Part shown: positions 1-25,825 of the stretch, one piece after another
Numbering within the stretch: position 1 is the stretch's first letter
Layout of the letters: each line of letters starts with the position of its first letter
NCBI GenBank assembly: GCA_965204615.1
Contig: OZ242000.1
Coordinates: 3,223,913 to 3,287,912, forward strand
Length of the DNA: 64,000 bases
Origin: Acidimicrobiia bacterium
GTDB lineage: Bacteria; Actinomycetota; Acidimicrobiia; Spongiisociales; ZC4RG35
Reading direction: 5' to 3'
Notes under the pieces: model-generated
Database searches by the model: none
The model's input: the letters and a program-made list of their open reading frames with translations, nothing else
What the model was told of the DNA's origin: nothing
Position numbers and translations under genes: made by a program

Positions 1-130
1 CAGGGTTTCCCTTTGCGTGATTCAATGCGGTGGGACAAGGCTCGGTGATGCGGATACGTGCGTCGAGCCATGAAAAGTTTCTGTCACACCCTGCCGGTAT
101 TGTGTCGGGCACTGATAGCTGAAAGGATGC

Positions 131-1357
131 ATGATGCCCAATCTGACCTATGAACAAATCCGTGACGCTACTGCTGGTGAGGCGGTGGCTCTTAGATCGG
201 TGACGAGCCTGCAGCCCGCTGGGGGACGGGGTGACAAGGTGTTTCCTCCGACTTATGCGGTTGACTCTCGGGCTGAACATCGGTACGCAGTGGAAGAGCG
301 TCAGGTTGGAGACGAGGTAATGAGGACTGTGCTGTTGGATTCCGTCGCTTCGCAAGCTAACCGGGCGGAGCTCGCCTTGTTGGCCGGATGGGAGGACGGC
401 GAACTGGGTTTTCCGGTGGCGTACGTCGACTTCATGGCAGATGATGAACTCGCGGACATCGGGAAGCTCACCGTTCTGGAAGCGCCACATCGGATCGCTG
501 ATGCCATATTCCGGGACAGTCTTCTGGACGGGACTCTTTTCCGACTATCCAACATCGGAAGGGCGATCACCAATGCTCATTCCCGTGATGCGACCGCGCT
601 GTTTCGTTATTCCCCAACGGCGCTTCTTTTCGGCATGTGGGACTCGACCGGACCCAAGGGAGGCGGGGGATCGAAGTTCCAACGGGCATACGTCTCGGAG
701 ATCGTCGGTTTCAACGCAACGGTGGGCCGCAAAGTAGGTAGCCGTATCGATCCGTTGCAGATCGAACGGGACGCTGCCGTTGCTTTTCAGCACAGGGACC
801 CCGAGCAACGATGGACGTTGGACGAATCAGATGCAGCGCGAGACAAGAAAGGCAATCCCATAAAGGCCGGTGCCGATGGTCGGCCGGCGGAGATCAATCA
901 TGGCAACATCGCTCCCAGCATCAATACCTTGTCGGGCGGGGTAACCATCTCAGAAGCGACGCAGACCATCGTCATTTCTCTGGCTGCTCCCCGACGACTC
1001 CGCTTTGCTGGCCAGAGTCGAGCTGCCGAGGATGCCGCTCGTACCGCGATCGCCGCTTTGGGTGTCGCTGCGGTCGCATACCAGCACGAGATGGACTATG
1101 ACCTTCGGTCTCGCTGCTTGCTCGTCCCCCAGCATTCCCCTCGGCTAGAGGTTATTACGCGGGATGGGTCCGAACCCGAAGTTGTCGGAGTGGATCGAGC
1201 CACGTCCGCGGACTTGCTTCGCCAAGCCGCAGAGGAGGCTCAACAGGCAGGGCTGGGCTGGACAACCTCGGAGTTCCGACTGGAACCGGCGCCTAAATTG
1301 GTGCAGCTCATCAAACAGAGCCGTCGGGTGTCAGCCGACAAGCCTCTTTCGGGATAA
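131..1357 (+). CDS. Type I-U/I-G Cas7-like backbone protein (Csb1 family), tentative
   Basis: First gene of an operon that continues into cas5/6, cas3-HD, cas4-cas1 and cas2. Glycine-rich loop (STGPKGGGGSKFQ) typical of Cas7 RAMPs. Size of 408 aa fits Csb1. Assignment is by context and motif, not alignment. Confidence 0.45.
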   Translation: MMPNLTYEQIRDATAGEAVALRSVTSLQPAGGRGDKVFPPTYAVDSRAEHRYAVEERQVGDEVMRTVLLDSVASQANRAELALLAGWEDGELGFPVAYVDFMADDELADIGKLTVLEAPHRIADAIFRDSLLDGTLFRLSNIGRAITNAHSRDATALFRYSPTALLFGMWDSTGPKGGGGSKFQRAYVSEIVGFNATVGRKVGSRIDPLQIERDAAVAFQHRDPEQRWTLDESDAARDKKGNPIKAGADGRPAEINHGNIAPSINTLSGGVTISEATQTIVISLAAPRRLRFAGQSRAAEDAARTAIAALGVAAVAYQHEMDYDLRSRCLLVPQHSPRLEVITRDGSEPEVVGVDRATSADLLRQAAEEAQQAGLGWTTSEFRLEPAPKLVQLIKQSRRVSADKPLSG

Positions 1358-1360
1358 GCG

Positions 1361-6688
<5,328 letters not shown>

Positions 6689-6838
6689 ATAACCCCCCTG
6701 TGGTGCTGTCAGGGATTCTCTGTCGGTGTTAAGATGGCGCATCGACCACTCAACATCGACTAATCCATCTGTCGAAGCATTTGAGAATGCGAACGGCTGT
6801 AGGATTTCACCTCACCTTCCTATTCAGCCCCAACGACT

Positions 6839-8479
6839 ATGTCTGACGTACCAGCTCTGGTTCCAGTTCGGATGGTCAATGAGTTTGAGTACTGTCCGCG
6901 GCTTTTTTATCTTGAGTGGGTTCAATCTCGGTTCGTGGATAATCCCGATACCGTGGAGGGTCGTTATGTGCATCGGAAGGTCGATCCGGGGGGAGGTCGG
7001 ATCGCCGGACCGGAAGAGGATGACCCGGTGCGGAAGGCCCGGTCTGTGATGTTGGGGTCGGACCGTTTGGGGCTGATCGCCAAGGCGGACATAATCGAGG
7101 GAGGGAATGGCCGGGTGACTCCCGTTGAGGTCAAACGGGGCCGACCGCCCAAGCATGGTCCGGCATGGTCTCCCGAGCTCGTGCAACTGTGTGCGATCGG
7201 GCTGCTGCTCCGTGACAACGGGTACCAGTGCTCCGAGGGCGAGATTTACTTTGCGGAGACCCGCCAGCGGGTGACCATTCCTTTCGATGACGAACTGGTG
7301 GCGAAGACCCTCCGACTCGTGGAGGAGTTGCGGCATGTCGCGTCGGGACCGGACCCGCCTCCACCATTGGTCGACAGCCCGAAGTGCCCCCGTTGTTCCC
7401 TGGTGGGCATCTGCTTACCCGACGAGACCAACCTGCACACAAAGCGCTCCCTGAAGCGGCCCCGCCGGTTGGTGCCCCGCGATCCGTCCGCCCGCCCCTT
7501 GCATATCACCGAGCAGGGTGCGCGGATCGGCGTCAGGGGAGGTCGTGCCGTGGTCTCCAAGCACTACAAGGAAGTCGAATCGGTACGCATGATCGATGTC
7601 TCCCAGGTCTCGGTTTACGGCAACGTTCAACTGAGTTCCCAGTTCATGCGAGCGGCATTCATGCGGGAGATGCCGGTGTGCTGGTTCTCCTACGGTGGAT
7701 GGTTCCAAGGCATCGCCCATGGCCTGCCGTCGAAACATGTCGAACTGCGACGACGCCAAGTAGCCATAGCTGCTCAGGCGGGACTTCCGATCGCTCGACG
7801 GTTGGCCGAAGGAAAGATCCGCAATTCCCGCACCCTTCTTCGCAGAAACGCCAGACAGAATGTAGAGCGGGTCCTGGCACAACTCAACACTCTCGCCCAC
7901 CGGGCTGTATCTGCGCTATCCGTCGAAACCCTTCTCGGTCTGGAGGGAACCGCGGCCCGCCTCTACTTCTCCAAATTCGCCACCATGTTTAAGGACGACG
8001 ATCTCGGCACCTTTGACTTCCAGAGCAGGAACCGACGACCTCCAAGGGACCCGGTCAACTGCCTGCTGTCCTTCGGGTATTCGATGCTGGTCAAGGACTT
8101 CACGGCCACAGCCCTGGCGGTGGGCTTCGACCCATACCTCGGTGTCTACCATCACCCCAGATTCGGACAACCGGCCCTGGCCCTCGACCTGGCCGAGGAA
8201 TTCCGACCTCTCATAGCGGAATCGGTCGTCTTGACTCTCATCAACAACAACGAGATCAGCCGAAACAACTTCGTCATCCGGGCACAAGGGGCAGCGATGA
8301 CCAGCCAGGGACGAAGGACTTTCATCAAAGCCTACGAGCGCCGACTCGACCAAGAAGTGACACACCCCACTTACAAGTACCGGATCACCTACCGCAGAGT
8401 CTTCGAAGTCCAGGCGCGCATGCTCGGCGCCTACCTACTGGGGGAAATACCCGAATACGTACCCTTCATGACGAGGTAA
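6839..8479 (+). CDS. cas4-cas1: Cas4-Cas1 fusion protein
   Basis: N-terminal Cas4 features (EFEYCPRLFYLEW, C-terminal Cys cluster CPRCSLVGIC). C-terminal Cas1 region (GVYHHPRFGQPALALDLAEEFRPLIAE). Confidence 0.85.
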   Translation: MSDVPALVPVRMVNEFEYCPRLFYLEWVQSRFVDNPDTVEGRYVHRKVDPGGGRIAGPEEDDPVRKARSVMLGSDRLGLIAKADIIEGGNGRVTPVEVKRGRPPKHGPAWSPELVQLCAIGLLLRDNGYQCSEGEIYFAETRQRVTIPFDDELVAKTLRLVEELRHVASGPDPPPPLVDSPKCPRCSLVGICLPDETNLHTKRSLKRPRRLVPRDPSARPLHITEQGARIGVRGGRAVVSKHYKEVESVRMIDVSQVSVYGNVQLSSQFMRAAFMREMPVCWFSYGGWFQGIAHGLPSKHVELRRRQVAIAAQAGLPIARRLAEGKIRNSRTLLRRNARQNVERVLAQLNTLAHRAVSALSVETLLGLEGTAARLYFSKFATMFKDDDLGTFDFQSRNRRPPRDPVNCLLSFGYSMLVKDFTATALAVGFDPYLGVYHHPRFGQPALALDLAEEFRPLIAESVVLTLINNNEISRNNFVIRAQGAAMTSQGRRTFIKAYERRLDQEVTHPTYKYRITYRRVFEVQARMLGAYLLGEIPEYVPFMTR

Positions 8480-8659
8480 ATGATGGCCAGAGGAAGAAAG
8501 CGATACCTGGTAGCGTATGACATCAGACACCAAAAGCGTCTACGTCAAGTACACAAGACAATGAAGGCCTACGGGTGGGCCATGCAATACAGCGTTTTCA
8601 TATGCGATCTTGACTTCATAGAACTGGTCGAGATGCGCACCGACCTAGGAGGCTGCTGA
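8480..8659 (+). pseudogene. cas2: cas2 5' portion (54 native codons), truncated by IS insertion after position 8642
   Basis: MMARGRKRYLVAYDIRHQKRLRQVHKTMKAYGWAMQYSVFICDLD is a Cas2 N-terminal half. The ORF is only 59 aa. Its last codons and stop lie inside the IS terminal inverted repeat. Confidence 0.7.
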
Positions 8660-8777
8660 GTATTGGTGTTGGTGGGTGGGGTGTTGGTGGTCTGAGGCTG
8701 GGTGTTGGTGTTCTGTTGGGTTGTGTTTCTTCCCTTGGGGAGGCCGTGGAGGCGGTCGGGGGTGGGTTTCGGGGTGG

Positions 8778-9590
8778 TTAGGTGGGTTTGGCGGCCCAGC
8801 CAACAGGGGTGTGGTGTAGTCCGAGGTTGATGAGGCGTCGTAGGTTGATTGCGGCGATGCGGGTGTGGAGTTGTTGTCGGTTTGGTTCTATGCCCCGGTA
8901 TCTGAGTTTTCGGTTTCCTCGGGCGACGATGTGAGCGATGATCCGTTCCACTGATGGTCGCCAGCGGTTGTAACGGGCGACGGTTTGGGGTTGTTTCCAT
9001 TGTTGTCTGGCTCGGTCGAGCAGCCGATGGTGGGGGTGGATCTGTAGGTGCCGTCCTGTTTTGCTGGTGGTGCAACGACTTCGGTAGGGACAGTCGGTAC
9101 AGACCGCTCTGAAACGGACCTGTCCTGTCGATCCGATGGTGGCGGTGTTACCGGCCGGGCAGGTCACCTTTCGGTGTTCGGGGTCGATCACGAAGTCGTC
9201 GCGGGTGAACTGGTCGGCGCCCAACCGAGGGTTGCGTCTGGCGGGTATCGGTTTGATCGTGGTGATATGACCGGCCTCGGGCTTGGCCAAAGCGGCACGG
9301 ACGTGGCCCGATCCGTAGGCCGAATCGGCGATAACCTCGGTACCCGGTTTGTCCTTTTTTAGCAGTTCCACGCCGGTGGGACCGTCCGGTGTGTTGGCCG
9401 AGGTGATCTCACAGGCAGTGACGATCCCTGTTTCGGGCTCGGCCACGATATGGGCTTTGTAACCGTCCCGACGCTGCGAAGACGTTTTGCGTCCGTGCCG
9501 AGCCTGCGGATCGACGACCGAGATCGTCCGATCCGAAGCGACCCGGCGGGCGATCCTCCATTTTCCCGTCCGGTCGGGGTCGGGTTCCAC
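8778..9590 (-). pseudogene. IS1182/IS5-like DDE transposase, C-terminal half
   Basis: GYKAHI...DSAYGSG...RWRPSVERIIAHIVARGNRKLRYRGIEPNRQQLHTRIAAINLRRL is a typical IS1182/IS5 C-terminus. It begins exactly at the IS256 target-site duplication. Confidence 0.65.
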
Positions 9591-10982
9591 GGGCCTGTCA
9601 AATTGTCTGTGTGAGGGGTTGGGTTCATGGGTTTTATTGGGTTAGGTTCATTCGGTTTGGGAAGTGGATTTCGAGTTGGTTTAGGGCTGTTTTCCAGCCG
9701 TGGGTGCGGGTTCCGAGGTTGCCTCCTCTCTTGTTGGCGATGTTCCGAGCCGCCAGGCGCAGCAGTTTCAGAGCGGATTGGTCGGTGGGGAAATGGCCCC
9801 TGGTTTTGGTGACTTTCCGCAGCTGGTAGTGAACGCTTTCCACCAGGTTGGTGGTGTACACGACCCGGCGAAGCTCGGGAGGGAACCGCAGGAACGGGGT
9901 GAACTCTTCCCAGGCGCGTCGCCATACGCGTATCATCCCCGGGTAGCGGTTTCCCCACTGGTCGTCGAGTTCGTCCAGCGCCTGGGCGGCCGCCTCGGCG
10001 TTCACCGCCGTGTACACGACCCGAAGCCCCTTGGCGATCATTTTGCGGTCTTTCCAGCTGCACAGCCGCATAGAGGCCCGTATCAGGTGGATGACACAGG
10101 TCTGGACCAGCGCCTGAGGCCAGGTGGCCTCGATCGCGTCCGGGAGGCCTTTCAGGCCGTCACAGCACACGATCAGCACGTCCTCGAGGCCTCGGTGGCG
10201 GATCTCGGTCAGCACCGACAGCCAGTATTTGGCGCCTTCTCCGCCGTCGCCGAGCCACACCCCGAGGACGTGTTTGCGACCGTCCACATCGACACCGACC
10301 ACCACGTACGCTGGGCGGTTGATGACAGTACCGTCGGTACGGACCTTGATCACCATGGCGTCTATGTACAAGAGGGGATAGCACCGGTCAAGGGGCCGGT
10401 TCTGCCACTCGGTGAGCTCCTCGACGATCCCGTCGGTGACCTTGGACACCAACGCCGGCGACACATCCACGCCGTACATGCGAGCCAACTCCGAGCGGAT
10501 GTCACGGGTGGACAGACCCCGGGCGTACAACGCCACGATGTTGGCGTTGAAGCCCTCCAGACGCCGGGCGCCCTTGGGAACGATCCTGGGTTCGAACGTA
10601 GCGTTGCGGTCACGGGGCACGTCCAGGTCCACCGCGCCGATCTCGGTCAGGACCTGTTTCGGAGTGGTCCCGTTCCGGCTGTTGCCCGTCCCATGGCCCA
10701 TCGGGTCACCATGCTCATAGCCCAAATGATCAGTCAACTCCTCAGAAAGAGCCCGTTCCAGCACCCGCTTGGTCAACTCGGCCAACACACCGTCAGGACC
10801 CAAAAGGTCCACACCACCCGCCGCAGCGTCCGACACCACAGCCTCCACCAGCTCGTCGGACACCACACCAGCCGGCTCCGTCATCACATGTTCAGTCATA
10901 CATCATCTCCTCTCAGGCCGGGCTCTCACACCAGCCAAACAAATCAGAGAACCCAACCTCACACAGACATGTATACAGGCTC
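9591..10982 (-). mobile_element. IS256-family insertion sequence (1392 bp) nested in the IS1182-like transposase gene
   Basis: Imperfect ~33-bp inverted repeats (GGGCCTGTCAAATTGTCTGTGTGAGGGGTTGGGTTC at the left, matching the reverse complement of the right end). Flanked by an 8-bp direct repeat GGTTCCAC at 9583..9590 and 10983..10990. Confidence 0.8.
9634..10899 (-). CDS. IS256-family (mutator-type) transposase
   Basis: 421 aa with the characteristic IS256 transposase core (DHLGYEHGD...SRNGTTPKQVLTEIGAVDLDVPRDRNATFEPRIVPKG...). Confidence 0.85.
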   Translation of the reverse strand: MTEHVMTEPAGVVSDELVEAVVSDAAAGGVDLLGPDGVLAELTKRVLERALSEELTDHLGYEHGDPMGHGTGNSRNGTTPKQVLTEIGAVDLDVPRDRNATFEPRIVPKGARRLEGFNANIVALYARGLSTRDIRSELARMYGVDVSPALVSKVTDGIVEELTEWQNRPLDRCYPLLYIDAMVIKVRTDGTVINRPAYVVVGVDVDGRKHVLGVWLGDGGEGAKYWLSVLTEIRHRGLEDVLIVCCDGLKGLPDAIEATWPQALVQTCVIHLIRASMRLCSWKDRKMIAKGLRVVYTAVNAEAAAQALDELDDQWGNRYPGMIRVWRRAWEEFTPFLRFPPELRRVVYTTNLVESVHYQLRKVTKTRGHFPTDQSALKLLRLAARNIANKRGGNLGTRTHGWKTALNQLEIHFPNRMNLTQ

Positions 10983-11770
10983 GGTTCCACGTCCTGGCCG
11001 ACTACCACCCCTAACAAACCCACCGCTTCTGACTGTAGATCATCCAGATCAATGTCCCTAACCGTTTCCAGCACCGCCAGCCCGTCGGTGACCAAACGGT
11101 TGATCAACTCCGAGCGACTGTCCGGGTCCGACCAATCACAGGATGGCTTGCTCCCTTGGTAGTAATCATGGGACAACACCACCTCACGCGCTTGGGGGAT
11201 CAGACGGCGGCAGCGGCGAATCTGGGATGTGATCATGGTCACCGTGTCCTGGGTGACCACCGCATCATCCAAAACCGTGGAGTCCAACACCCGGCGGGTG
11301 CGACCCGACAACACCCCCGTCTGGTCCACCACCCTCCTAACCGCGTCGAAGATCCGCTCCGGCTGGTGACTGTTTCTTAGTCTCGCCCGCCACAAAGTCA
11401 ACACCGTGGGATGGAACCCTTCATCGGTCAACGCCAACCCCGCCGCGGCTTTCCAACGAATATCACACCGCAACCGACCGATCGCTTCCCGATCCGACAG
11501 GCCTTCCAACGCCTGTAACACCATCACCGTCGCCACCACCGACCCCGGAACCGATCGACGACCCCGCGGACCGAACAGATCCTCGAACATCCCATCCGGG
11601 AACACTGTCTTGCGGTGCTCGGCCAAAAACCGATGAACCGACCCTTCAGGAACCAGATCACCACACACCGCCATCGCGTCCAACAACTGCCGATCAAAAC
11701 CTTCACTACCCAACATCCCCCGAATTATCTCATAAACCGGCACCCGACACCAGCATTCACCAACCCCCAC
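10913..11770 (-). pseudogene. IS1182-like transposase, N-terminal half (reads through into IS256)
   Basis: FPDGMFEDLFGPRGRRSVPGSVVATVMVLQALEGLSDREAIGRLRCDIRWKAAAGL is an IS1182/IS5-family N-terminal domain. The native part ends at ...GVVVGQDVEP (10991), which is continued by VEPDPDR in the C-half. Confidence 0.65.
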
Positions 11771-11800
11771 CCACCCGAATAAATCAGCAGCCTCCTAGGT

Positions 11801-11932
11801 GCCATCATCAACCACGGTATCGATTCCATCGCCATCATCGATCTCGGTCAACCGGAAGACCGCGGCAGCAAATGCTTCTCTTTCATCGGCCAATCCAACC
11901 CCCTACCAGTCAGCGGACCCGTGATAATCTGA
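11801..11932 (+). pseudogene. cas2: Putative displaced cas2 3' end (C-terminal ~43 codons)
   Basis: An ORF immediately outside the right IS repeat encodes AIINHGIDSIAIIDLGQPEDRG..., resembling the Cas2 C-terminal DS(V/I)R(I/V)Y-LG region. 54 + 43 aa gives a normal Cas2 length. Frame continuity across the junction is not proven. Confidence 0.3.
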
Positions 11933-11959
11933 TGCGAGAGGCCAGGTCCGACCGCCAGT

Positions 11960-12103
11960 ACCAGGCACCGCTCGACAGCCTGCTAGACGTAGAAATAAAG
12001 CACTTTGACAACCGAGTGACAGCCGCTCGAAATCAGCCGCTAAGCCAACCGCTCGCAAACCTTGGGCTAAACCCCAGGTCAACGGCCGAATGACAAGCGA
12101 GCC
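11960..12103 (+). promoter_or_regulatory. Putative CRISPR leader (promoter-proximal region upstream of repeat 1)
   Basis: Lies directly upstream of the best-conserved repeats. It is a locally AT-richer stretch with TTGACA at about 12000. No -10 element could be confirmed. Confidence 0.3.
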
Positions 12104-13109
12104 CCTCCGAGGGCCGATCTCGGCCCTCCTCCATTGCGGCATGCTCCTGGGCATGCTCCTGGGCAGCACTGGCCACCCGAAGATGGCTGCCTCCGAGGGC
12201 CGATCTCGGCCCTCCTCCATTGCGGCCGGCGGCGGCTAGGAAGTCGTTTGCCCATACTTGGCCTCCGAGGGCCGATCTCGGCCCTCCTCCATTGCGGCAT
12301 TCCTTGTTTGAGTATTTCGTAAGCCTCTTCTGCTGCCTCCGAGGGCCGATCTCGGCCCTCCTCCATTGCGGCGAGGCGCTCGCCGATGGGAACACCTGGA
12401 CCCGAGAACCTCCGAGGGCCGATCTCGGCCCTCCTCCATTGCGGCTACCGCGACAATGTGCTCGTCGGGGATTTCCAGTACTACCTCCGAGGGCCGATCT
12501 CGGTCCTCCTCCATTGCGGCTACGCCCGGTACATCGAGGGTCGTCCGATGGCCGCCCTTCCGAGGGCCGATCTCGGCCCTTCTCCATTGCGGCTGGGCCA
12601 ATGCCCGGAAATGGCAAGACTTCCCCGAGCTCCGAGGGCCGATCTCGGTCCTCCTCCATTGCGGCCATGACATCGAGTTCGACCCAGGTGGCGTCCCGGC
12701 CCGCCCTCCGAGGGCCGATCTCGGTCCTCCTCCATTGCGGCTGGTACCTGACGACCAACCCGGGCCATCTGACCGTCCCTCCGAGGGCCGATCTCGGCCC
12801 TCCTCCATTGCGGCGCATAGCACCAGCCCGAAGCCAGACAGCTAACCCAACCTCCGAGGGCCGATCTCGGTCCTCCTCCATTGCGGCGTGTACAGAATCT
12901 CGTCGACCTGCGTCTGGATGGCCAGCCTCCGAGGGCCGATTTCGGCCCTCCTTCATTGCGGCCGGACCTGGAGCAGTCGCCGGTAGAAGTTGTCCGGCCC
13001 TTCGGGGGTCGATTTCGGCCCTCCTTCATTGCGGACCGACCTCTTCGCCTTGATGCCCGTCCAGGTCGTCACCCTTCGGGGGTCGATTTCGGCCCTCCTT
13101 CATTGCGGC
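12104..13109 (+). CRISPR. CRISPR array: 14 repeats of 37 bp (CCTCCGAGGGCCGATCTCGGCCCTCCTCCATTGCGGC) and 13 spacers (35-39 bp, except spacer 1 at 49 bp)
   Basis: Repeats start at 12104, 12190, 12262, 12336, 12409, 12484, 12557, 12629, 12705, 12778, 12851, 12926, 12999 and 13073. R1-R5 are identical; later repeats accumulate substitutions, and R12-R14 are degenerate. Internal palindrome GAGGGCCGA-TC-TCGGCCCTC. The 3' handle-like ATTGCGGC supports plus-strand orientation. Confidence 0.9.
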
Positions 13110-13229: not shown

Positions 13230-13680
13230 GAGCGGGCCTCAGGCGGTTCGCGACTTGGGTGTGGCTTCGCCTTCAACTTCTCGGCGGGGCTAGTTGCGGG
13301 CCGGCTTTGGTTAGGGAACCAGGCAGACCTTCCCAGCACTTGGCGGTCGGCCAGGTAGGCGATGGCTGCGGGGGCCTGGTCGAAGGAGAAGACCCAGTCC
13401 ACGTGGGGGTGGATCAGGCCCTGCTCGCACCACTCTTTGAGTTGGACGAGATTGGCGCGGTTCTCTCTGGGGTAGCGTTCCACGAAGTCTCCCCAGAACA
13501 CTCCCACCGCCGAGGCCGATTTCAGGAGGGCCAGGTTGAGCGGCAGACGGGGGATCTTCCCGGCCGCAAAGTCGACCACCAGCAGGCATCCGTTCCACCG
13601 GAGTGAGCGGAAGCAGGTTTCAGTGGCGCAACCGCCCACCGGATCGTAGACCACGTCGGCGCTCTTTCCGTCGGTGAAAC
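13230..13680 (-). pseudogene. Truncated copy A of the qor 3' end (~380 bp, with a 1-bp deletion near the stop) plus conserved downstream element
   Basis: 13301..13680 is about 90% identical to 31591..31970 of the intact qor; the encoded VYDPVGGxATETCFRSLRWNG...ADRQVLGR matches. 13203..13300 carries the shared downstream element (GGGAGGGAA...CGCGACTTGGxTGTGGCTTTCGCC...CGGCGGGGCTAGTT...). Confidence 0.75.
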
Positions 13681-13700
13681 TGCGGACAGCCTCCTAGCGT

Positions 13701-15281: not shown

Positions 15282-15666
15282 CCTCCGGGAGGGAGCCCGA
15301 AGGGGAAGGGAGCAGCGGGCGTTTTTCGCGACTTGGCTGTGGTTTTCGCCGTGGATTTCTCGGCGGGGCTAGTTGCTGGCCGGATTGGCTAGGGAACGAG
15401 ACAGACCCTTCCCAGCACCTGGCGGTCGGCCAGGTAGGCCATGGCAGCGGGGGCCTGGTCGAAGGAGAAGACCCGGTCCACGTGGGGTGGATCGAGCCCT
15501 GTTCGCACCACTCTTTGAGCTGGACGAGATTGGCGCGGTTTTCTCTGGGTAGCCTTCTACGAAGTCTCCCCAGAACGCTCCCACCGCCGAGGCCGATTTC
15601 AGGAGGGCCAGGTTGAGCGGCAGGCGGGGGATCTTGCCGGCCGCAAAGTCCACCACCAGCAGGCGT
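15282..15666 (-). pseudogene. Truncated copy B of the qor 3' end (~270 bp) plus conserved downstream element
   Basis: 15400..15666 aligns to the last ~270 bp of qor (LLVVDFAAGKIPRLPLNLALLKSASAVGAFWGDFVE...). 15282..15400 is the shared downstream element. Confidence 0.7.
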
Positions 15667-15689
15667 CCACAGCAGGAGCGTGACCCCAC

Positions 15690-17186
15690 TCAGCTTTCTC
15701 TTATGGTCGGCGGAACCGGCTCTTTGGATGGTGGGCAGATCGCCGGTTCACGGGTGCGGCACATGAATAGCATGGTTTCCTCCCTCGATGGTGTGGATTG
15801 GAACCCGAATGTGTTGGTTGCCGTTCCGCCTGTTATTCCTTGGTTGTAGGCCCAGCCGATGGGCGCCTGGTACCAGGCGTCGGCGTTTCCGGGAACGTCG
15901 TCATAGTGGTCTTTGCCCAGAGTGCCGTTGGCTGGTTCTCCTTCCGCGCGGTAGAGGAATGCCATGGTTTGTTCTCTGGTAAGGGTGTGGCCCATCCCGA
16001 ATAGGCCGTTCCCGATTCCAGTGGTGATGTGGTTTTCGAAGGCCCAGCCGATCGGGATGTTGGCCCAGTGGTCGTCTGGGACATCGGTGAAGTGGGAGCT
16101 GCCGTCGTACTGGTCTGTTGTGCACTCGTCCGGTGCGTAGGCTCGGCACAGGAAAGTTATCATTTCTTCTCGCTTCAAACCTGACTGAACCCCGAACCGT
16201 CCTTCTCCGACGCCTGCTGTGATCTCCCATGATTGAGCCCACCTCACCGGAACGTAGTAGAAGTCGTCGTAGGGTACGTCGGTGAAAGTCGGGTAGTCGT
16301 CGCCTGGGGCTATCTCGATTATGAAAGTGTCTCCGTACCGTTCGATCACATCGAGTTCGTATCGGTCCGGATCCGTTTCGCTGTCCCCCCAGTAAATACC
16401 TTCGTCGAGACCTAGAACATGAAGCACCGAGTCGTCTGCTCCCGATAGGGCCGGTTTCGTTCGCCTGTCCGCACCCCAACAAGCATCCCTGTAGGGGTTG
16501 TCGCACTGAGCGGCGGATTGGTCGATTAGGTAGACCTCAACGCCTTCTTTCTGGATGAGAGAGTCGTATGACTCCTGAACTCGAACTCCTATGGAATGGA
16601 ACATTCCAGTAGACCAGTGCATGATCACCATCTGAGTGCCGGTTGAACCAATCGGGTTTATTGCATGCAGCGATACATGATCCCAAGGATGAATCTCTAC
16701 TTGGTCGGGCTGAATCCAGCCAGCCGCGTAACGATTCAATACATGAGTGCCCGCCAGAACCGGACGGATAGACCATCCTCTATTGTCCTCGTACCTTGCG
16801 GTCGGCCCTCTGCTCATCACATCCATGGGATTGTCATACTCGTCTATCGTGCCATCGTCATTCAAGGTTTCGCCAGTGAAGGAATGGGGCCAACTGAGCG
16901 TATGCCCGATCTCATGAGCAACGGTGTAAATCAGATTCAAGGCACGAAGGTTATCAAGTGATCCTATCCCGTTCTCGATAGAAGACAGAGCAATGGGAGA
17001 CCATCGCACGCCTACGTTCGTGAACCATCCCATCCATACCTCCCTACCGCTGTCAGGATAAAGGTCATGACACCAATTGATGGAAACACTGTCCCAACAG
17101 TAGGAGCCAGGCCCACCCCAAGACCATACGTTGGAAGCATCATCAATATCCAGCGTGGAAACGACAATCGCTGCATGGTTTCCGCC
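15690..17186 (-). pseudogene. Secreted zinc metalloprotease with C-terminal SLH domains, 3' (C-terminal) portion, cut by IS21
   Basis: HEIGH zinc-binding motif (VAHEIGHTLSWPHSF). Three SLH-like segments (FTDVP..HWA...W....GIT.G.....FG....LTREQ...FLYR). The ORF lacks a signal peptide; it continues on the far side of the IS21 element. Confidence 0.65.
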
Positions 17187-17251: not shown

Positions 17252-18040
17252 TTAGGCTAGCAGGTCTCCTTTCGGGCGGTGTTTTCTGGCTTGTGCTTGG
17301 TAGCTTCGCAGGCGGTAGCTGTCGCCGGTGATGGTGAACACGACGCTTTTGTGGAGTAGGCGGTCGAGCATGGCAGCGGCGATGGTGTGGTCGGAGAAGA
17401 TCTCTCCCCAGGACGCGACACCGAGGTTGGTGGTGAGAATGATTGATCCTTTTCCGTACCGTCGGGAGATGACCTGGAAGAGTGTGGCGGCGTCTTCTGC
17501 CGGCATGGGCAGGTATCCGAGTTCGTCGATTATCAACACTTTGGGGGTGTTGAAGAACCGCAGGGTTTGGGCCCATCTTCCTTGTAGGGCGGCTTTGCGG
17601 CACCGCGCCGCCAGGTCGGCGGCGGTGGTGTAGTACACCTTGTGTCCGGTGTCCACCGCGGCGCGTCCGAGGATGACCGCCAGCATGGTTTTACCCACGC
17701 CGGGCGGTCCGATGAACAAAACGTTGGTGGCGTCGGCCAGGTAGGCGCCGGTGGCCAGTTCTCTTATGAGTTTCTCGTTGATGCTGGGTTGGGCGGTGAA
17801 ATCGAAGTCTTCCAGTTTCCAGCGGGTGGGGAAGTTCGCCAGTTTGAGACGGGTTTCCCATCTGCGCTGTTCAGTGGTTTCGACTTCTACTCGAAGTAGA
17901 CCTTCCAGGAACTGGGTGTGTCCGGTGTTGTCCTGACGCGCCGTCTCGAGGTGGGTGGGGAGCGCCTCGGCCGCGGCGGGTAGGTCGAGGTAGGCCAGAT
18001 GGCCTCGTAGTTGTTGGTACACCGATTGTTGGTTCATCAC
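17252..18040 (-). CDS. istB: IS21-family helper ATPase IstB
   Basis: Walker A GPPGVGKT and Walker B LIIDELGY, in an IstB-like sequence. Overlaps istA by 4 bp. Confidence 0.85.
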   Translation of the reverse strand: MMNQQSVYQQLRGHLAYLDLPAAAEALPTHLETARQDNTGHTQFLEGLLRVEVETTEQRRWETRLKLANFPTRWKLEDFDFTAQPSINEKLIRELATGAYLADATNVLFIGPPGVGKTMLAVILGRAAVDTGHKVYYTTAADLAARCRKAALQGRWAQTLRFFNTPKVLIIDELGYLPMPAEDAATLFQVISRRYGKGSIILTTNLGVASWGEIFSDHTIAAAMLDRLLHKSVVFTITGDSYRLRSYQAQARKHRPKGDLLA

Positions 18041-19332
18041 AGCCCCCGGTTTTGTTGGTCGATGTGCCGCTGATAAACCTCCAGGTCTATCACCGTTTCT
18101 GTGTACAGATCAGCTCCGATACCCGAAGCGATAGCCAAAGCCGCTGCCGATGGCGGACGGTTGGGTTTGGGTTTGCAGGGTGGTTTGGTAGTGAACTCGG
18201 CCAGGACCACGTTCTCCAAAGCAGCGGTGTGTTCGGGTAGCCGTACCACCCGTCCCATACCGCGGGGTGCCTGCTGGTGGGTAGCGACCAGCCGGCCACT
18301 GGCCGAGAACATGCTGATAGTGGGGTCACCCAGCCGCCAACGGACGGTGACCTGGGTTCCTATCACCCCTGGTGGCACCGAGTATCGGTTACCGCGTACC
18401 GATACCAGCCCGTTGGAAGCCACCCTGCGCTCCAGGACCCCTTCCGCCGGGTAAGCCACCAGGGGCAGCTCGAGGAGAGGCTCGGTCTCGGCCAGTTCCC
18501 CCACGGTGCTCTCGCCTCGTGGACGGGCGTCGCCCACCGTTTGGCAGAAGCTGTCCAGGCTGTGCTGTGCCTGGGCGATGCTGGTCACCGCCGCGGTGCG
18601 CCACCACCGCTGAGAGACATAGTGAATGGCCTTTTCCACCACGCCTTTCCGTTGAGGACGGCGCGGTGGGCACGGATCGACAACCACCCCGTAATGCTTG
18701 GCTACCCCAACGAACGACGGCTGGATACGACCGCCGGCGGCGACCACGGTCGCCATCCGATCCACCCGCCACCGCCGCGGGGTGCCCCCCAGGCGTCTCA
18801 ACACCTGGTCGAGACCCTCCACCAAATGGGGTTGGTCCTGGCGGGACGTGATCCACGCCCGAAAAGCGCCCGAGTGCGACAACACACCCACCAACACATG
18901 AGCCGTGGCTCCCCACGGGGCATCACGCAGCTCCACCCAATCCCATTGACACTCCTCACCCGGCGGATGATCGATGATCGCAGTGGCACGGCCCCTGGTG
19001 CCCGCACAAGCGCCACACAACGGCCGCAGGCCCCGGTTGCGGATCTTCCGCACGAACGTCGGGTAACTCTGCGAATAGCCCAAAGCCACCACCTCGTCGA
19101 ACAGCGCCGACCCCCACACATGCGGATCATCAGACAACCGCTGCCGCACATACGCCTCGAACTCATCAAACAAATCCGCCCCCGCCCGGGCACGCTGACC
19201 GGGCACCCGATCGCCCGACAGATACGCTCGCACGGTACGGCGGCTCTTACCAACATGACGGGCAATAGCCGAGATCGACCACCCCCGCCTCCTCAAAGCA
19301 TGAACTTCCACGCACTCCTCCAGTACCAACAT
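18037..19332 (-). CDS. istA: IS21-family transposase IstA
   Basis: N-terminal HTH (WSISAIARHVGKSRRTVRAY) followed by an integrase-core-like region. 431 aa. Confidence 0.85.
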   Translation of the reverse strand: MLVLEECVEVHALRRRGWSISAIARHVGKSRRTVRAYLSGDRVPGQRARAGADLFDEFEAYVRQRLSDDPHVWGSALFDEVVALGYSQSYPTFVRKIRNRGLRPLCGACAGTRGRATAIIDHPPGEECQWDWVELRDAPWGATAHVLVGVLSHSGAFRAWITSRQDQPHLVEGLDQVLRRLGGTPRRWRVDRMATVVAAGGRIQPSFVGVAKHYGVVVDPCPPRRPQRKGVVEKAIHYVSQRWWRTAAVTSIAQAQHSLDSFCQTVGDARPRGESTVGELAETEPLLELPLVAYPAEGVLERRVASNGLVSVRGNRYSVPPGVIGTQVTVRWRLGDPTISMFSASGRLVATHQQAPRGMGRVVRLPEHTAALENVVLAEFTTKPPCKPKPNRPPSAAALAIASGIGADLYTETVIDLEVYQRHIDQQNRGL

Positions 19333-20799: not shown

Positions 20800-20935
20800 G
20801 GGGGAGGGAAGCCCGCCGAGGGAGGGGACCGGCGGGCGATTCTCGCGACTTGGCTGTGGCTTTCGCCGTCAACTTCCCGGCGGGGCTACTTACCCGCCTG
20901 CTTTGGGTAGGGAACCAGACTGGCCCATTCCTTGT
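20800..20935 (-). repeat. Copy C of the qor-downstream element with only ~15 bp of the qor 3' end
   Basis: GGGGAGGGAAGCCCGCCGAGGGAGGGGACCGGCGGGCGATTCTCGCGACTTGGCTGTGGCTTTCGCCGTCAACTTCCCGGCGGGGCTACTT...TTTGGGTAGGGAACCAGAC aligns to the downstream element of copies A and B, including the qor stop-codon region. Confidence 0.65.
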
Positions 20936-20970: not shown

Positions 20971-22905
20971 ATGAGATTCCGTGATCGGTTGGGTCTGGTT
21001 TCGGCTGCTGCGGCCGTGTCCCTTCTTTTGGTTGGTGTCCCATCGGTTTTCGGGCAGACGGCTCCGGACTTTGAGGATGTTCCCGAGGGTCATGTTGCGG
21101 AGGAAGCTATCTCATGGGCCGCCGACAATGCGGTAACGGAAGGCGTGGGCGACAACCGCTTCGGGATCGGCCAGACCCTTACCCGCTACGAAATGGTCAC
21201 ATTCCTGTGCCGAGCGTACGATCCCGCCAGTTGTCAGAGCGGCGTGAGGGGAAGCGATAGTTTCGATGACGTGCCTTCCGATCACTGGGCCGACCACTCG
21301 GTGGGTTGGGCGGCCGACCGTGGGATAACCAGCGGGGTCAGCGCCACGGAGTTCGGGGGTTCCCAGACGCTCACCCGTGAACAGATGATCACGTTCCTCT
21401 ACCGCGCAGAAGGGTCACCGACCGGCGGATCGGACGGAAGTGACGTGTTCCAGGACGGGCCCGACCGGAGCCATTGGGCGAGCCTCCCGATAGGTTGGGC
21501 ATACGACCAGGGAGTGACCGGTGGGATCGCCGCAGGAACATTCGGGTTCGGCACCAAGGTGTCACGAGAAGAAATGGTGCTGTTCCTGTGCAGGACGGTG
21601 GCGCCCGGGACGTGTCAACCGTCACAGGATCCCCTCCCCTCGAGTGTCGTTCACCCGTCGCCGACAACCACCACTAGGACGCCTACCACCCAACGCATGG
21701 CCTACTCCACCTTCTCTCCCAACCCTGGAGTGTGGGTGGAGGACGCGGACGGTACCAACAAACGACACCTACACGACAGTGGAGCCAACTTACGGTGGTC
21801 GTCCGACGGCACCAGAGTCGCCTACGGCGCCAGGGAAGGGTTGTGGGTGGCAAACGTGGACGGCACCCACAAACAACTCCTCGTCGAAGACGGCTCTTAT
21901 CACAAGTGGTCTCCCGACGGCACCAGGATCGCCTACAAAACCAGGGACGACGAGTTATGGGTGATAGGAGCGGACGGCACCGACAAGCAACAGCTCGGCC
22001 GAATCGACTCCATCTTCTTCCTCGACAGCTACCACTTCGTGTGGTCACCGAACGGTTCCAGAATCGCCTATCGGACCAAGGACCGTTCCTTGTGGGTGGC
22101 GGACGCCGACGGGACCAACAAACGACAACTCATGTACCGCAACAAGGGTTACAGGCTGCTGTGGTCACCCGACAGCGCCAAAGTCGCCTATTTCACCAGC
22201 GACGGCGAGTTGTGGATCGCGGACGCCGACGGGACCAACCAACGGCAACTGGGCGAGAGCGCCTATTCTCCGCGGTGGTCACCCGACGGCACCAGAATCG
22301 CCTACACCAGCCGCAGCGACAGGACATCGGGGCAGGTGATGTGGGTGGCGGATGCCGACGGGACCAACAAACGCCAACTCGGCGAACTCTTCAGCGGTAC
22401 AAGTCTGCGGTGGTCGCCCGACGGCACCAAGATCGCCTACCACAAAACCGGCGGCGCGTTCTGGGTGATGAGCGCCGACGGGACCAACAAACAACAACTC
22501 CACGACGATATTCATCACAATATCGCCCCGTGGTGGTCACCCGACAGCACCAAGATCGCCTACGGACAGAACGAGTTGTGGATCGCGGACGCCGACGGGA
22601 CCAACCAACAACAAATCGCCGAAGTCGCTCATACTCCGCGGTGGTCGCCCGACAGCACCAAGATCGCCTACCAAGCCGGCGATGGGTTATGGGTGGTAGA
22701 CGCCGACGGGACCAACCAACAACAAATCACCAATCCCGCCCAACACTACGTCTCCGTCACTGATCTGCTCTGGTCACCCGACAGCACCAAAATCGTCTAC
22801 TGGACCGGCTCATCAGGCCTATGGGTGATCGACGCCGACGGGACCAACCAACGAATAATCGCAGAATCCAGCCACGCCTACCAGCAGATATGGAGTCCCC
22901 GGTAA
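20971..22905 (+). CDS. Secreted S-layer-homology (3x SLH) protein with ~14 PD40/TolB-like beta-propeller repeats
   Basis: Signal peptide. N-terminal SLH motifs (FEDVPEGHVAEEAISWAADNAVTEG...; FDDVPSDHWADHSVGWAADRGITSG...). Repeated WSPDGT.IAY....LWV.DADGTN..QL units. Confidence 0.75.
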   Translation: MRFRDRLGLVSAAAAVSLLLVGVPSVFGQTAPDFEDVPEGHVAEEAISWAADNAVTEGVGDNRFGIGQTLTRYEMVTFLCRAYDPASCQSGVRGSDSFDDVPSDHWADHSVGWAADRGITSGVSATEFGGSQTLTREQMITFLYRAEGSPTGGSDGSDVFQDGPDRSHWASLPIGWAYDQGVTGGIAAGTFGFGTKVSREEMVLFLCRTVAPGTCQPSQDPLPSSVVHPSPTTTTRTPTTQRMAYSTFSPNPGVWVEDADGTNKRHLHDSGANLRWSSDGTRVAYGAREGLWVANVDGTHKQLLVEDGSYHKWSPDGTRIAYKTRDDELWVIGADGTDKQQLGRIDSIFFLDSYHFVWSPNGSRIAYRTKDRSLWVADADGTNKRQLMYRNKGYRLLWSPDSAKVAYFTSDGELWIADADGTNQRQLGESAYSPRWSPDGTRIAYTSRSDRTSGQVMWVADADGTNKRQLGELFSGTSLRWSPDGTKIAYHKTGGAFWVMSADGTNKQQLHDDIHHNIAPWWSPDSTKIAYGQNELWIADADGTNQQQIAEVAHTPRWSPDSTKIAYQAGDGLWVVDADGTNQQQITNPAQHYVSVTDLLWSPDSTKIVYWTGSSGLWVIDADGTNQRIIAESSHAYQQIWSPR

Positions 22906-23232: not shown

Positions 23233-24471
23233 TCAAATCGGGTTTGGGTGGGGTGGGAGGGTGGTGAGCCATTGGTGGTATCGGGTGGCGAGGTGGTGGT
23301 CGTGGTGTTGGCCTCGTTCGAGTTGGGAGATGCGTGTTGGGTAGGTTCGGAGGGTTTCGGCGGCGTGGTTTAGGGTTGTTCCGGCGTTTTTGCGTAGGCA
23401 GCGAAGGTCGTTGCCGTGGAGCGTGGGGTGTGGGTTGGTGAGCAGGTGGTAGATCTCTCGGGCGATGTGGCGTTTGAGGCAGCGGATGATTTCTTTTCGG
23501 GTTTTGCCTTCGGTTCGGCGTTTTTCGGCGTATTCGATGGTTGGCTGGTGCCAGCGCATGCGGGTGGTAGCGATCCGCCAGAGTGCCTGGTTGGCTTGGC
23601 GGTTCCCGCCGCGGTTGAGGCGATGGCGTACGATCCGTCCCGACGAGGCTTGGACCGGGCTTACGCCGCACAGGGCAGCGAAAGACGCTTCGGTGCGCAT
23701 GCGTTCGGGGTTGTCCCCAGCTGTGATCAGCAACGCGGCGGCGGTGTCCGCGCCGATCCCGGGAGCGGAGAGCAGCGCCGGGTTGGTCTCGGCGCAGAGA
23801 CGTTTGATGTCGGTATCGAGGTCTTGTATCTCGGCGGTGAGCGATTGGTGTCGGCGGGCCAAGACCCGGAGTGCTTTCTTGGCATAGGCAACAGTGGTCT
23901 GGGCTGTGCCGGGACGAAAACCGGCACAGATCTTGATCCGGGCTTTGCCCGAAACGCCGCTAAGTTGGTGTTTTACCTGCTCGGGAGCTGTCACCACCAG
24001 AGCATGCAACTGGTTTTTGGCCTGGGTGCGTGCCTTGACCGCCGAACGGCGGGCCACCTGGAGCATCCGTATCCCCTCGACCGGACCGTTTCCGCTTTTG
24101 GGTACCCCGGTGGCCTGTCCGTTGAGAACCGACCGAGCCGCGGCCTGGGCGTCGGTGGCGTCGGTCTTGCCCAACCGGCGGCGTAGCTGCCGATTGGGAC
24201 GGTTCACCTCTATCACCTCGACACCGGTCCCGGTTAGATAACGGGCCAGGCCGGCGCCGTAACTACCGGTGCCCTCCACACCGACCCCAACCACACGACC
24301 CTGAGACTGAAGCCAGTCGCCCAGTTGTTCATAACCGGCCGCATCGGCGTCGAACGGGGAAGTACCCAAGACTCGACCGGTGCTGTCCACCACCGCTGCC
24401 ACATGAACATCCCGATGGGTATCCACCCCACCGTACACTTGTTGACTCTCTGACATGAACAGTTCCTCCAA
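23233..24471 (-). CDS. IS110-family transposase
   Basis: N-terminal DEDD-type motifs (VYGGVDTHRDVHVAAVVDSTGRVLG; VGVGVEGTGSYGAGLARYL). 412 aa. Confidence 0.85.
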   Translation of the reverse strand: MEELFMSESQQVYGGVDTHRDVHVAAVVDSTGRVLGTSPFDADAAGYEQLGDWLQSQGRVVGVGVEGTGSYGAGLARYLTGTGVEVIEVNRPNRQLRRRLGKTDATDAQAAARSVLNGQATGVPKSGNGPVEGIRMLQVARRSAVKARTQAKNQLHALVVTAPEQVKHQLSGVSGKARIKICAGFRPGTAQTTVAYAKKALRVLARRHQSLTAEIQDLDTDIKRLCAETNPALLSAPGIGADTAAALLITAGDNPERMRTEASFAALCGVSPVQASSGRIVRHRLNRGGNRQANQALWRIATTRMRWHQPTIEYAEKRRTEGKTRKEIIRCLKRHIAREIYHLLTNPHPTLHGNDLRCLRKNAGTTLNHAAETLRTYPTRISQLERGQHHDHHLATRYHQWLTTLPPHPNPI

Positions 24472-24781
24472 AACGGGATAGAATTCGGCCTATTCACCAG
24501 ACCCGCTGGCGGATGGACAGACCACTCTGTGAGTATTAGGGGGGCCTCGTGGAGGTTGTCAGGAATGGCGTCAGCGGCGGTGTCGTGACCCAAGACCACT
24601 CTGACCTTTGTGTCTTACACGTGATATGTCCGACACCGCCGTGGCGCCTTCTGGGCGTTCCGTTGCTGGCCTGATCAGAAGCTTGTCCACCCCCTTGGGG
24701 GTGTGACCCATCACAGTGTTGCCGTCACGGTTTGCGCCTTCTTGGGGCAATAACCCAGTTTGCACAAGAAGGGAGTTTCTT

Positions 24782-25825
24782 ATGTTGGCCACAATGGTAG
24801 ATCATGTGATCGGGATCGATCCTGATCGTGACCGGGTCACCGCCTCGGTAGTGGACACGTCCACTACCGGAGAACAGGCATCTGCGGTGTTCGCTACTAC
24901 CCGGGTGGGGTATGACCGGCTGTTGGAATGGGCCAATCGGTATACCACCGTCTCTGATCGGGTGTGGTCGGTGGAAGGCACGGGCAGTTACGGAGCAGGC
25001 GCAACAGCCTATCTCACTTCGCGGGGTGAGTGGGTGACCGAGTTCAACGATCCCATCCCCACCCGCGACGGCGCCAAGACCGACGCTTTGGACGCCCGAC
25101 GCGCCGCCCGCCAGGCGCTGGGTCGCCGGTGGCCATCGGTCCCGCGGGCTCGTGGAGACCGAAAAGCCCTACGAGTGTTGGAAACGACCCGCAACAGCGC
25201 CAAAAACGACAAAATAGCGGCTATCCACCAACTCAAAGCTCTCCTGGTCACCGCACCAGTCGATCTTCGTGACCAACTCCGAGGGCTGACCACTGCTGCT
25301 CTGGTCACCAAATGCGCACGGTTCCGACTCGCATCGGCGCCGGTCACCGAACACACCGCCACCAAGCAGGCTATGCGTTCTCTGGCCCGACGCATACGCA
25401 CTCTCGCCACCGAAATCGCAGAACTGCGCACAGCAATCAACGAACTGGTCAACTCTGTGGCCCCCCAACTGTTGAACCAGCCCGGGGTAGGCCCGATCAC
25501 CGCCGCGCAGGTATACATCGCCTGGTCCCACAAAGGCCGATGCCGCAACGAAGCCGCGTTCGCTCGCCTCGCCGGCGTCGCACCCCTAGAAGCCTCCTCC
25601 GGGCTACACACCCGCCACCGGCTCAACCGGCACGGCGACCGGACCCTCAACCAGGCAATCCACACCATCGCTATCACCCGCTCCCGGGCCTGCCCCAAAA
25701 CCCGCGCCTACATCGCCAAACGCATCAGCCAAGGAAAAACCACCCGCGAAGCCCGCCGGTGTCTCAAACGCTACATCGCCCGCCAGCTCTACCGACTGCT
25801 CGAAAACCCACCCCCACCCGCCTAA
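24782..25825 (+). CDS. IS110-family transposase (second copy, divergent from the first)
   Basis: VIGIDPDRDRVTASVVDTST...WSVEGTGSYGAGATAYL. RBS AAGAAGGGAG lies upstream of the ATG at 24782. The ORF-track start at 24716 is probably too far upstream. Confidence 0.8.
   Translation: MLATMVDHVIGIDPDRDRVTASVVDTSTTGEQASAVFATTRVGYDRLLEWANRYTTVSDRVWSVEGTGSYGAGATAYLTSRGEWVTEFNDPIPTRDGAKTDALDARRAARQALGRRWPSVPRARGDRKALRVLETTRNSAKNDKIAAIHQLKALLVTAPVDLRDQLRGLTTAALVTKCARFRLASAPVTEHTATKQAMRSLARRIRTLATEIAELRTAINELVNSVAPQLLNQPGVGPITAAQVYIAWSHKGRCRNEAAFARLAGVAPLEASSGLHTRHRLNRHGDRTLNQAIHTIAITRSRACPKTRAYIAKRISQGKTTREARRCLKRYIARQLYRLLENPPPPA

Follow-up and report, generated by a model that had tools for sequence, protein, structure and literature searches.

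The stretch of DNA analysed here, called the window in the following, is 64,000 nucleotides long and comes from an Acidimicrobiia bacterium (GenBank assembly GCA_965204615.1, contig OZ242000.1, positions 3,223,913 to 3,287,912 of the forward strand); positions are counted from its first letter. Close to its beginning lies a CRISPR-Cas operon (short palindromic repeats that are clustered and regularly interspaced, with their associated genes) of type I-G. The last gene of this operon, cas2, is interrupted by an insertion sequence (IS) of the IS1182 family, which in turn is interrupted by an IS of the IS256 family. A preliminary description, made from the sequence without database searches, had proposed that cas2 was split by a composite IS1182-like element and that the adaptation module was likely inactivated. 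The parts of the interrupted gene are listed below together with the evidence which places them; L001 is a contig encoding a 97%-identical Cas2, and L003-L026 are loci carrying relatives of the outer IS.

8480..8648, plus strand: cas2 5' fragment, native codons 1-56 and the first base of codon 57; tblastn puts Cas2 residues 1-57 at 8480-8650.
8645..8648, unstranded: left copy of the CTAG target; a single ACCTAGGT in the empty site of L001, and CTAG flanks in complete copies.
8649..11794, minus strand: IS1182-family insertion sequence; collinearity with L001 breaks at 8649 and 11794, and the ends are common to copies L003-L026.
8778..9590, minus strand: C-terminal part of the IS1182-family transposase (DDE domain), cut by the nested IS; Pfam DDE_Tnp_1_6 74.8 bits, DDE_Tnp_1 59.5 bits.
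9583..9590(1), unstranded: left copy of the 8-9-bp duplication GGTTCCAC(G), which recurs at the right end.
9591/2..10982, minus strand: nested IS256-family insertion sequence, 1391-1392 bp; Pfam Transposase_mut 381.5 bits, NCBIfam NF033543 393.3 bits (cutoff 150).
9634..10899, minus strand: IS256 Mutator-type DDE transposase, intact, 421 amino acids; Pfam and NCBIfam matches as for the nested element.
10913..11770, minus strand: N-terminal part of the IS1182-family transposase (DUF772), its last 26 codons coming from the nested IS; Pfam DUF772 51.7 bits.
10983..10990(1), unstranded: right copy of the GGTTCCAC(G) duplication, with the same sequence as the left copy.
11795..11798, unstranded: right copy of the CTAG target; L001 empty site, and CTAG flanks in complete copies.
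11799..11932, plus strand: cas2 3' fragment, from the last two bases of codon 57 to residue 100 and the stop; tblastn puts Cas2 residues 56-100 at 11795-11929.

The open reading frame (ORF) which begins as cas2 (8480..8659) runs into the outer IS and meets a stop codon at 8657-8659, and its product is a stub of 59 amino acids ending in TDLGGC. This ending had been seen correctly in the preliminary description, which counted 54 native codons; the native sequence reaches Leu56 and Gly57 is kept by coincidence, the stub being composed of 57 Cas2 residues and two foreign ones. On the far side of the insertion the frame from 11801 to 11932, also found before, reads AIINHGIDSIAIIDLGQPEDRGSKCFSFIGQSNPLPVSGPVII followed by a stop (it starts with AIINHGIDSIAIIDLGQPEDRG). 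An in-frame TAA lies just upstream of this 3' fragment at 11781-11783, inside the IS, and there is no ATG, GTG or TTG before Val98; the fragment therefore cannot be made separately. It had been suggested that joining the two pieces would restore a Cas2 of about 97 amino acids. A Cas2 is indeed restored, with a length of 100 amino acids, by the correct in-frame join of 8480..8648 and 11799..11932, which keeps one copy of the palindrome ACCTAGGT. The literal join of 8480..8642 and 11801..11932 gives a frameshift (MRTGHHQPRYRF...) and was replaced by the join above.

The rejoined protein matches Pfam CRISPR_Cas2 (PF09827, cutoff 23.8) with 62.7 bits over positions 2-70 of the 74 in the profile, as compared to 50.0 bits over positions 2-50 for the stub, and the reconstituted protein thus aligns to Cas2 over its C-terminal part as well. 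On TIGR01573 it scores 36.1 bits (cutoff 24.5). A database search returned 438 homologs, the best of which (P0001) is an intact protein of 99 amino acids with 97% identity along 99% of the query's length. When 11 intact homologs are aligned to the rejoined protein, the junction EMRTDLG-AIINHG is unbroken and conserved, and it is exact in the closest of them, P0001; D14, the conserved Asp with which β1 ends, is invariant among the 12 sequences. The AlphaFold model computed from that alignment has β1 at residues 7-14, α1 at 18-28, β2 at 32-34, β3 at 39-44, α2 at 46-57, β4 at 66-71 and β5 at 83-86, with a predicted local distance difference test score of 85-93 over residues 11-70, and the ferredoxin-like order β1α1β2β3α2β4 is present. 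The top Foldseek matches are all Cas2 chains; the best in the PDB are chains 7MI4_E and 7MID_D from type I-G Cas4/Cas1/Cas2 complexes (38-39% identity). According to the model the stub consists of β1-α1-β2-β3-α2 plus Gly-Cys and ends at the C-terminal end of α2, without β4, β5 and the C-terminal tail; the C-terminal half of Cas2 is lost. By its sequence the gene belongs to the Cas2 family, but an intact, translatable gene is absent. The cas2 of this locus is a pseudogene in two pieces, neither of which has any further lesion.

The uninterrupted form of the locus is found in L001. This contig and the window align collinearly along 8650 bp, with 97% identity; the match ends at window position 8649 and resumes at 11794, with an overlap of 6 bp. 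Its empty site is GCGCACCGACCTAGGTGCCATC, that is GCGCACCG ACCTAGGT GCCATC, in which the palindrome is present once. The comparison with an uninterrupted locus, which the preliminary description had recommended, has thus produced an empty site in a relative of 97% identity, and together with the 97% identity between the rejoined and an intact Cas2 it bears out the claim that an IS1182-family insertion disrupted cas2.

A perfect 17-bp inverted repeat had earlier been taken to delimit an insertion of 3158 bp. The repeat is found exactly where it was reported, as ACCTAGGAGGCTGCTGA at 8643-8659 and as the exact reverse complement at 11784-11800, and its 16-mer core occurs at just these two places in the 64 kb (0.03 expected; 0 of 100 shuffles with two or more matches). 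However, 7 of the 17 bases (ACCTAGG / CCTAGGT) are native cas2 and originate from the 8-bp palindrome ACCTAGGT; they resemble an inverted repeat because the target is palindromic. The element itself is 3146 bp as found, or 1746 bp without the nested element, and the net insertion is 3150 bp when the 4-bp CTAG is included. Its terminal repeats are GAGGCTGCTGA on the left and TCAGCAGCCTC on the right, and the window reads ...ACCTAG, GAGGCTGCTGA...TCAGCAGCCTC, CTAGGT... across the two junctions. A gapped alignment of the ends over about 45 bp, with insertions and deletions, has 37 identical positions, of which the first 11 are perfect. The repeats are thus true IS ends as far as the inner 11 bp are concerned, which are common to independent copies, whereas the outer bases are the palindrome of cas2.

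For the boundaries we relied on relatives of the restored transposase fetched from species-representative genomes. These amounted to 26 loci, mostly in metagenome-assembled genomes of Acidimicrobiia, with protein identities of at most 83%. Eight complete independent copies (L003, L005, L006, L007, L008, L015, L017 and L021) have the ends GAG[GTA]CTGCTGA...TCAGCAG[CA]CTC, and each of them is bordered by CTAG on either side and then by unrelated DNA; these ends correspond to GAGGCTGCTGA...TCAGCAGCCTC (GGCTGCTGA with at most one mismatch). L004 likewise has CTAG on both flanks, but its 3' end is CCAGCAGCCTC. When 9 complete independent copies and 6 copies with the 5' end only are considered, the ends are alike with at most 1-2 substitutions. 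A 6-bp duplication (CCTAGG) would fit the present copy and was ruled out, the bases outside CTAG being different on the two sides in L003, L005, L006 and L007. As the flanks of the other copies exclude the 6-bp duplication, the element is fixed as 8649..11794, with CTAG at 8645-8648 and 11795-11798. A duplication of 4 bp, of 2 bp (TA) or of 0 bp (a cut between CT and AG) fits every copy equally, and we describe it by convention as a 4-bp duplication of CTAG. The check for a target-site duplication, also recommended before, has accordingly turned up CTAG at both junctions, compatible with any of these three sizes.

Between the pieces of cas2 the split IS1182-type transposase is present as it had been described, with DDE_Tnp_1_6 in 8778..9590 and DUF772 in 10913..11770. 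The term composite was right as to the IS1182 family and has to be modified as to the structure: the two elements are nested, and the IS1182 transposase is split by a complete IS256-family element that has an 8-9-bp duplication of its own. Elements of the IS256 family are about 1.3-1.5 kb long, have imperfect terminal inverted repeats and duplicate 8-9 bp of the target. The nested element fits this description, its terminal inverted repeats being imperfect with 31 identical positions. In silico removal of the nested IS and one copy of the duplication gives a single ORF of 538 codons, colinear with intact homologs across the scar ...VGQDVEP-DPDR..., and the restored transposase scores 313.8 bits on the IS1182-family profile NCBIfam NF033551 (cutoff 270) over positions 10-487 of 488. 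With its gene split at about codon 243 the outer IS would no longer be able to make its own transposase, and judged from the sequence it should not be autonomous.

The choice of cas2 as the target can be understood from the distribution of CTAG. The window contains 36 CTAG sites, which is 0.17 of the expectation from base composition, and the cas operon holds 5 of them, one being made up of the Leu56 codon CTA and the following G. In L002 and L029-L031 this leucine is encoded by CTC and there is no CTAG target; the target is present in L001, L032 and L033. The preference of the IS for CTAG and the chance presence of this rare site therefore explain that cas2 was hit. No damage to cas4-cas1 or cas2 is seen in the other relatives (L029-L033), and the insertion in cas2 is therefore a sporadic event at the strain level. 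It should be mentioned that TTAA (0.11 of expectation) and TATA (0.19) are depleted in the whole window like CTAG, and that GATC is 2.15-fold over-represented.

In L001 there is a 1-nucleotide deletion in cas4-cas1 at about position 9512 (window position about 7992), where the sequence is ATGCTCAA-AACGAC as against ATGTTTAAGGACGAC, and the Cas1 part is frameshifted. Either the assembly is in error here or the adaptation module of L001 has suffered an independent lesion. A minus-strand gene of 380 amino acids lying "inside" the cas4-cas1 of L001 was considered as an insertion and rejected: it is a gene-calling artefact of the 1-nucleotide deletion, and the region is as long as its counterpart in the window.

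The operon with its leader and array is composed of the following parts.

131..1357, plus strand: csb1/cas7g, type I-G backbone subunit, intact; Pfam Cas_GSU0053 174 bits, NCBIfam TIGR02570 75.1 bits (cutoff 38).
1361..3025, plus strand: csb2, the Cas5-Cas6 fusion of type I-G, intact; NCBIfam TIGR02165 305.6 bits (cutoff 45), Pfam Cas_GSU0054.
2997..5750, plus strand: cas3g helicase with C-terminal HD nuclease, intact; NCBIfam TIGR02621 748.9 bits (cutoff 400).
5747..6688, plus strand: type I-G "Cas3-extension family" protein of 313 amino acids, intact; NCBIfam NF049934 272 bits (cutoff 65), no Pfam match.
6839..8479, plus strand: cas4g/cas1g fusion (adaptation integrase and prespacer-trimming nuclease), intact; NCBIfam NF049935 764.9 bits (cutoff 560), profile positions 1-546 of 546.
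8480..8648 and 11799..11932, plus strand: cas2, last gene of the operon, broken in two as described above.
11933..12103, plus strand: CRISPR leader, 171 bp from the cas2 stop to repeat 1, uninterrupted; 167/171 identical to L001 and conserved with L002 too.
12104..13109, plus strand: CRISPR array of 14 repeats of 37 nucleotides and 13 spacers; 12 good repeats, the last 2 degenerate.

The operon is a type I-G (formerly I-U) CRISPR-Cas operon: Cas3g, Csb1/Cas7g, Csb2 and the Cas4-Cas1 fusion all score above the NCBIfam cutoffs, and every cas ORF other than cas2 is full length against its own NCBIfam profile. A large subunit (Cas8g/Csx17) is not recognisable in the 64-kb window. The sole ORFs upstream of csb1 in L001 are one of 48 amino acids and a minus-strand ORF of 345 amino acids without a recorded Pfam match. 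Cas2 proteins 83-85% identical to the present one are found behind two effector layouts. One of these is csb1-csb2-cas3 followed by the "Cas3-extension" protein (300-313 amino acids), without a recognisable Cas8g/Csx17, as in the window, L001 and L029-L031; the other is cas3, an ORF of about 745 amino acids, cas7 and csb2, as in L032 and L033.

The 37-nucleotide repeat CCTCCGAGGGCCGATCTCGGCCCTCCTCCATTGCGGC is present in 12 copies in 12104-12962, with two further degenerate copies at 12999-13035 and 13073-13109. Since the repeats degenerate with the distance from cas2, the segment 11933-12103 is the leader. The proposal that the insertion might have altered the leader context is not supported, the leader being identical to that of L001 at 167 of 171 positions and the insertion lying about 300 bp upstream of repeat 1. 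The newest, leader-proximal spacer (12141-12189) is 49 bp long, the other spacers being 35-39 bp; it holds a tandem duplication of 12 bp (ATGCTCCTGGGC twice), and minus one copy it would be a normal spacer of 37 bp. Comparison of the spacers with the 64-kb window gave self-matches only, so there is no self-targeting within the window. A scan of 8300-12200 for promoters and terminators gave one site of each, about the chance number, both in the nested IS and none in the leader or the IS ends; such a scan is uninformative for an organism of high guanine-plus-cytosine content. An Rfam scan of the whole window found one transfer RNA and nothing else.

The events behind this structure may be pictured as follows. 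At codons 55-57 of cas2 an IS1182-family IS moved into the CTAG that lies within the palindromic ACCTAGGT. The IS256-family element would then have entered the IS1182 transposase gene, although the sequence fits the reverse order as well, in which case the pair would later have been mobilised in trans. Both insertions look recent: neither duplication contains a mismatch, the transposase of the inner element is still intact, and the cas2 fragments are without further lesions. To our knowledge every Cas1-Cas2 integrase that has been studied, the type I-G Cas4/Cas1-Cas2 included, has two Cas1 dimers with a Cas2 dimer as the bridge between them. Since the Cas2 dimer is the structural bridge of the integrase (here Cas4/Cas1-Cas2), spacer acquisition by the present locus has very probably been lost. 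The impaired adaptation predicted in the preliminary description is, in the light of known Cas1-Cas2 biology, a strong inference. Interference with the 13 existing spacers is probably kept, because the effector genes, the leader and the array are intact. Taken together, we assign a probability of about 0.9 to the reading that a nested IS insertion broke cas2, and that the locus no longer acquires spacers and has kept interference.

Several points weigh against this reading. The loss of adaptation would follow by analogy with known Cas1-Cas2 complexes, and the three possible sizes of the target duplication are inseparable by sequence because CTAG itself is palindromic. The insertion is seen in one assembly only: the truncated Cas2, the Cas4-Cas1 and the IS256 transposase of the window are without an exact match on record, and one scan of metagenomes with the 24-mer lying directly upstream of the insertion site returned 0 matches. 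A compatible Cas2 could also come from a second CRISPR-Cas locus outside the visible 64 kb, which leads to an alternative in which another locus in the genome supplies Cas2, or the whole Cas1-Cas2, in trans, and adaptation is kept. The visible part of the genome is 64 kb, and related Acidimicrobiia combine near-identical Cas2 proteins (83-85%) with two effector architectures, which suggests multiple or exchangeable modules in this lineage. However, the 64-kb window contains no second cas1 or cas2 and the analysis turned up no second locus; we consider a supply in trans unlikely. That the assembler misplaced a repeated IS into cas2 is an idea which the many IS of the region invite (IS21 and two IS110-type genes within 26 kb), and the insertion is absent from the other public contigs searched. 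But both junctions are precise to the base and lie at the characteristic CTAG target of the element, with the duplication expected of transposition. The nested IS256 has a duplication of 8-9 bp as well, and a mis-join would not yield matching duplications at two nested levels; an artefact is hence very hard to believe.

It might also be that the loss of cas2 was selected, for example against the uptake of self-targeting spacers in an IS-rich genome, with interference being kept. It would agree with this that the damage is confined to the adaptation module, with intact interference genes, leader and array, and that L001, the relative of 97% identity, has its independent 1-nucleotide deletion in cas4-cas1 and intact effector genes. 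On the other hand the relatives L029-L033 keep cas4-cas1 and cas2 intact, and the rarity of CTAG (36 per 64 kb, 0.17 of expectation) leaves the IS few targets, of which cas2 chanced to hold one. Furthermore no spacer matches the window itself, the frameshift in L001 could be an assembly error, and two lesions do not suffice for a statistical argument. Selection is accordingly a quite improbable cause of the loss. The more general proposal, that adaptation is selectively turned off and interference kept in an IS-rich lineage, as two 97%-identical sister strains with independent lesions in the adaptation module would exemplify, is to us just as doubtful. If it were true and recurrent in many strains it would mean selection against spacer uptake, for instance an autoimmunity cost in a symbiont genome full of mobile DNA. 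We thus prefer the reading in which a nested IS insertion, sporadic and directed by its target, broke cas2 and left interference in place.

The surroundings of the locus contain more mobile DNA. There are at least 5 IS elements in the first 26 kb, the two in cas2 included; the others comprise an IS21-type pair (istA-like gene at 18037-19332, istB at 17252-18040) and a pair of IS110-family transposase genes that face each other (23233-24471 and 24716-25825). A zinc-dehydrogenase gene is located at 31591-32565 on the minus strand, and its 3' end (31591-31975) is repeated in the same orientation at 13312-13694 and 15389-15668 with 93-94% identity. One of these partial copies directly adjoins the degenerate far end of the CRISPR array, and a weaker repeat (about 80%) of the sequence beside the two partial copies is found near 20.8 kb (about 20801-20931). 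Insertions seem to have followed one another at the 3' end of the zinc-dehydrogenase gene, and the CRISPR-Cas locus may be part of one island in a stack of several. The space from the IS110 genes to the dehydrogenase gene holds a pair of genes, a minus-strand ORF of 1383 amino acids without any Pfam match (26073-30224) and the upstream AAA_14/DUF4143 ATPase gene (30221-31483), which it overlaps by 4 bp. Five proteins with S-layer-homology (SLH) domains are encoded at 15690-17033, 20971-22905, 40586-42736, 59689-61875 and 62526-63956, and four of the five also have PD40, DUF5122 or other beta-propeller repeats. Internal DNA repeats occur in 22161-22678, 42064-42541 and 63277-64000.

What has been described is the real, ordinary and precisely resolved conversion of the cas2 of a type I-G locus into a pseudogene by IS. 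Neither the phenomenon nor either of the two IS families is new; the particular elements, from uncultured Acidimicrobiia, are members without a name of their own. For the annotation it means that cas2 should be entered as a pseudogene in two pieces, that the 3.15 kb between them are two nested IS and not three transposase fragments, and that the locus is probably "interference-only". IS biology gains a base-precise example, with its empty site, of an IS1182-family element targeting the rare tetranucleotide CTAG. Nothing new is added to CRISPR biology, in which IS-mediated decay of cas genes is well documented.

The outer element shares with the IS1182 family (NF033551, which includes IS1272) one long DDE transposase that has DUF772 in its N-terminal and DDE_Tnp_1_6 in its C-terminal part, terminal inverted repeats and a palindromic target. 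Some members of this family prefer palindromic targets, and IS1272 replaces stem-loops without duplication (PMC5678879). The present element differs from IS1272 in this respect and behaves more conventionally, with an apparent duplication of 4 bp at a short palindromic target, CTAG. A search of the literature on the IS1182 family and CTAG brought up no paper that describes such targeting.

In the type I-G locus of Mycobacterium heckeshornense the gene order is csb1-csb2-cas3-hypothetical-<IS1380>-cas1-cas2 (PMC10333696). It is of the same subtype and has the same unusual order, with a small unnamed protein after cas3, and a transposase lies beside the adaptation genes. There the IS1380 is situated between genes, upstream of cas1, whereas here an IS1182 is inside the coding sequence of cas2 and carries an IS256. 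In the cas operons of Shigella and Escherichia coli, IS, frameshifts and truncations inactivate the cas genes, the arrays persist and the locus is described as still degrading (Touchon and Rocha, 2010, PMC2886076). The present locus resembles these in having an IS-inactivated cas gene and a persisting array. The enterobacterial operons are of type I-E, with IS1/IS600-type elements and nearly all cas genes decayed, whereas the present type I-G locus has a single, apparently recent lesion, in cas2 only. The best structural match to the rejoined protein is the type I-G Cas4/Cas1-Cas2 of Geobacter sulfurreducens (PDB 7MI4 and 7MID), with 38-39% identity over the full length and the same Cas4-Cas1 fusion as partner; its proteins are intact and active, whereas the Cas2 described here ends at the end of helix α2.

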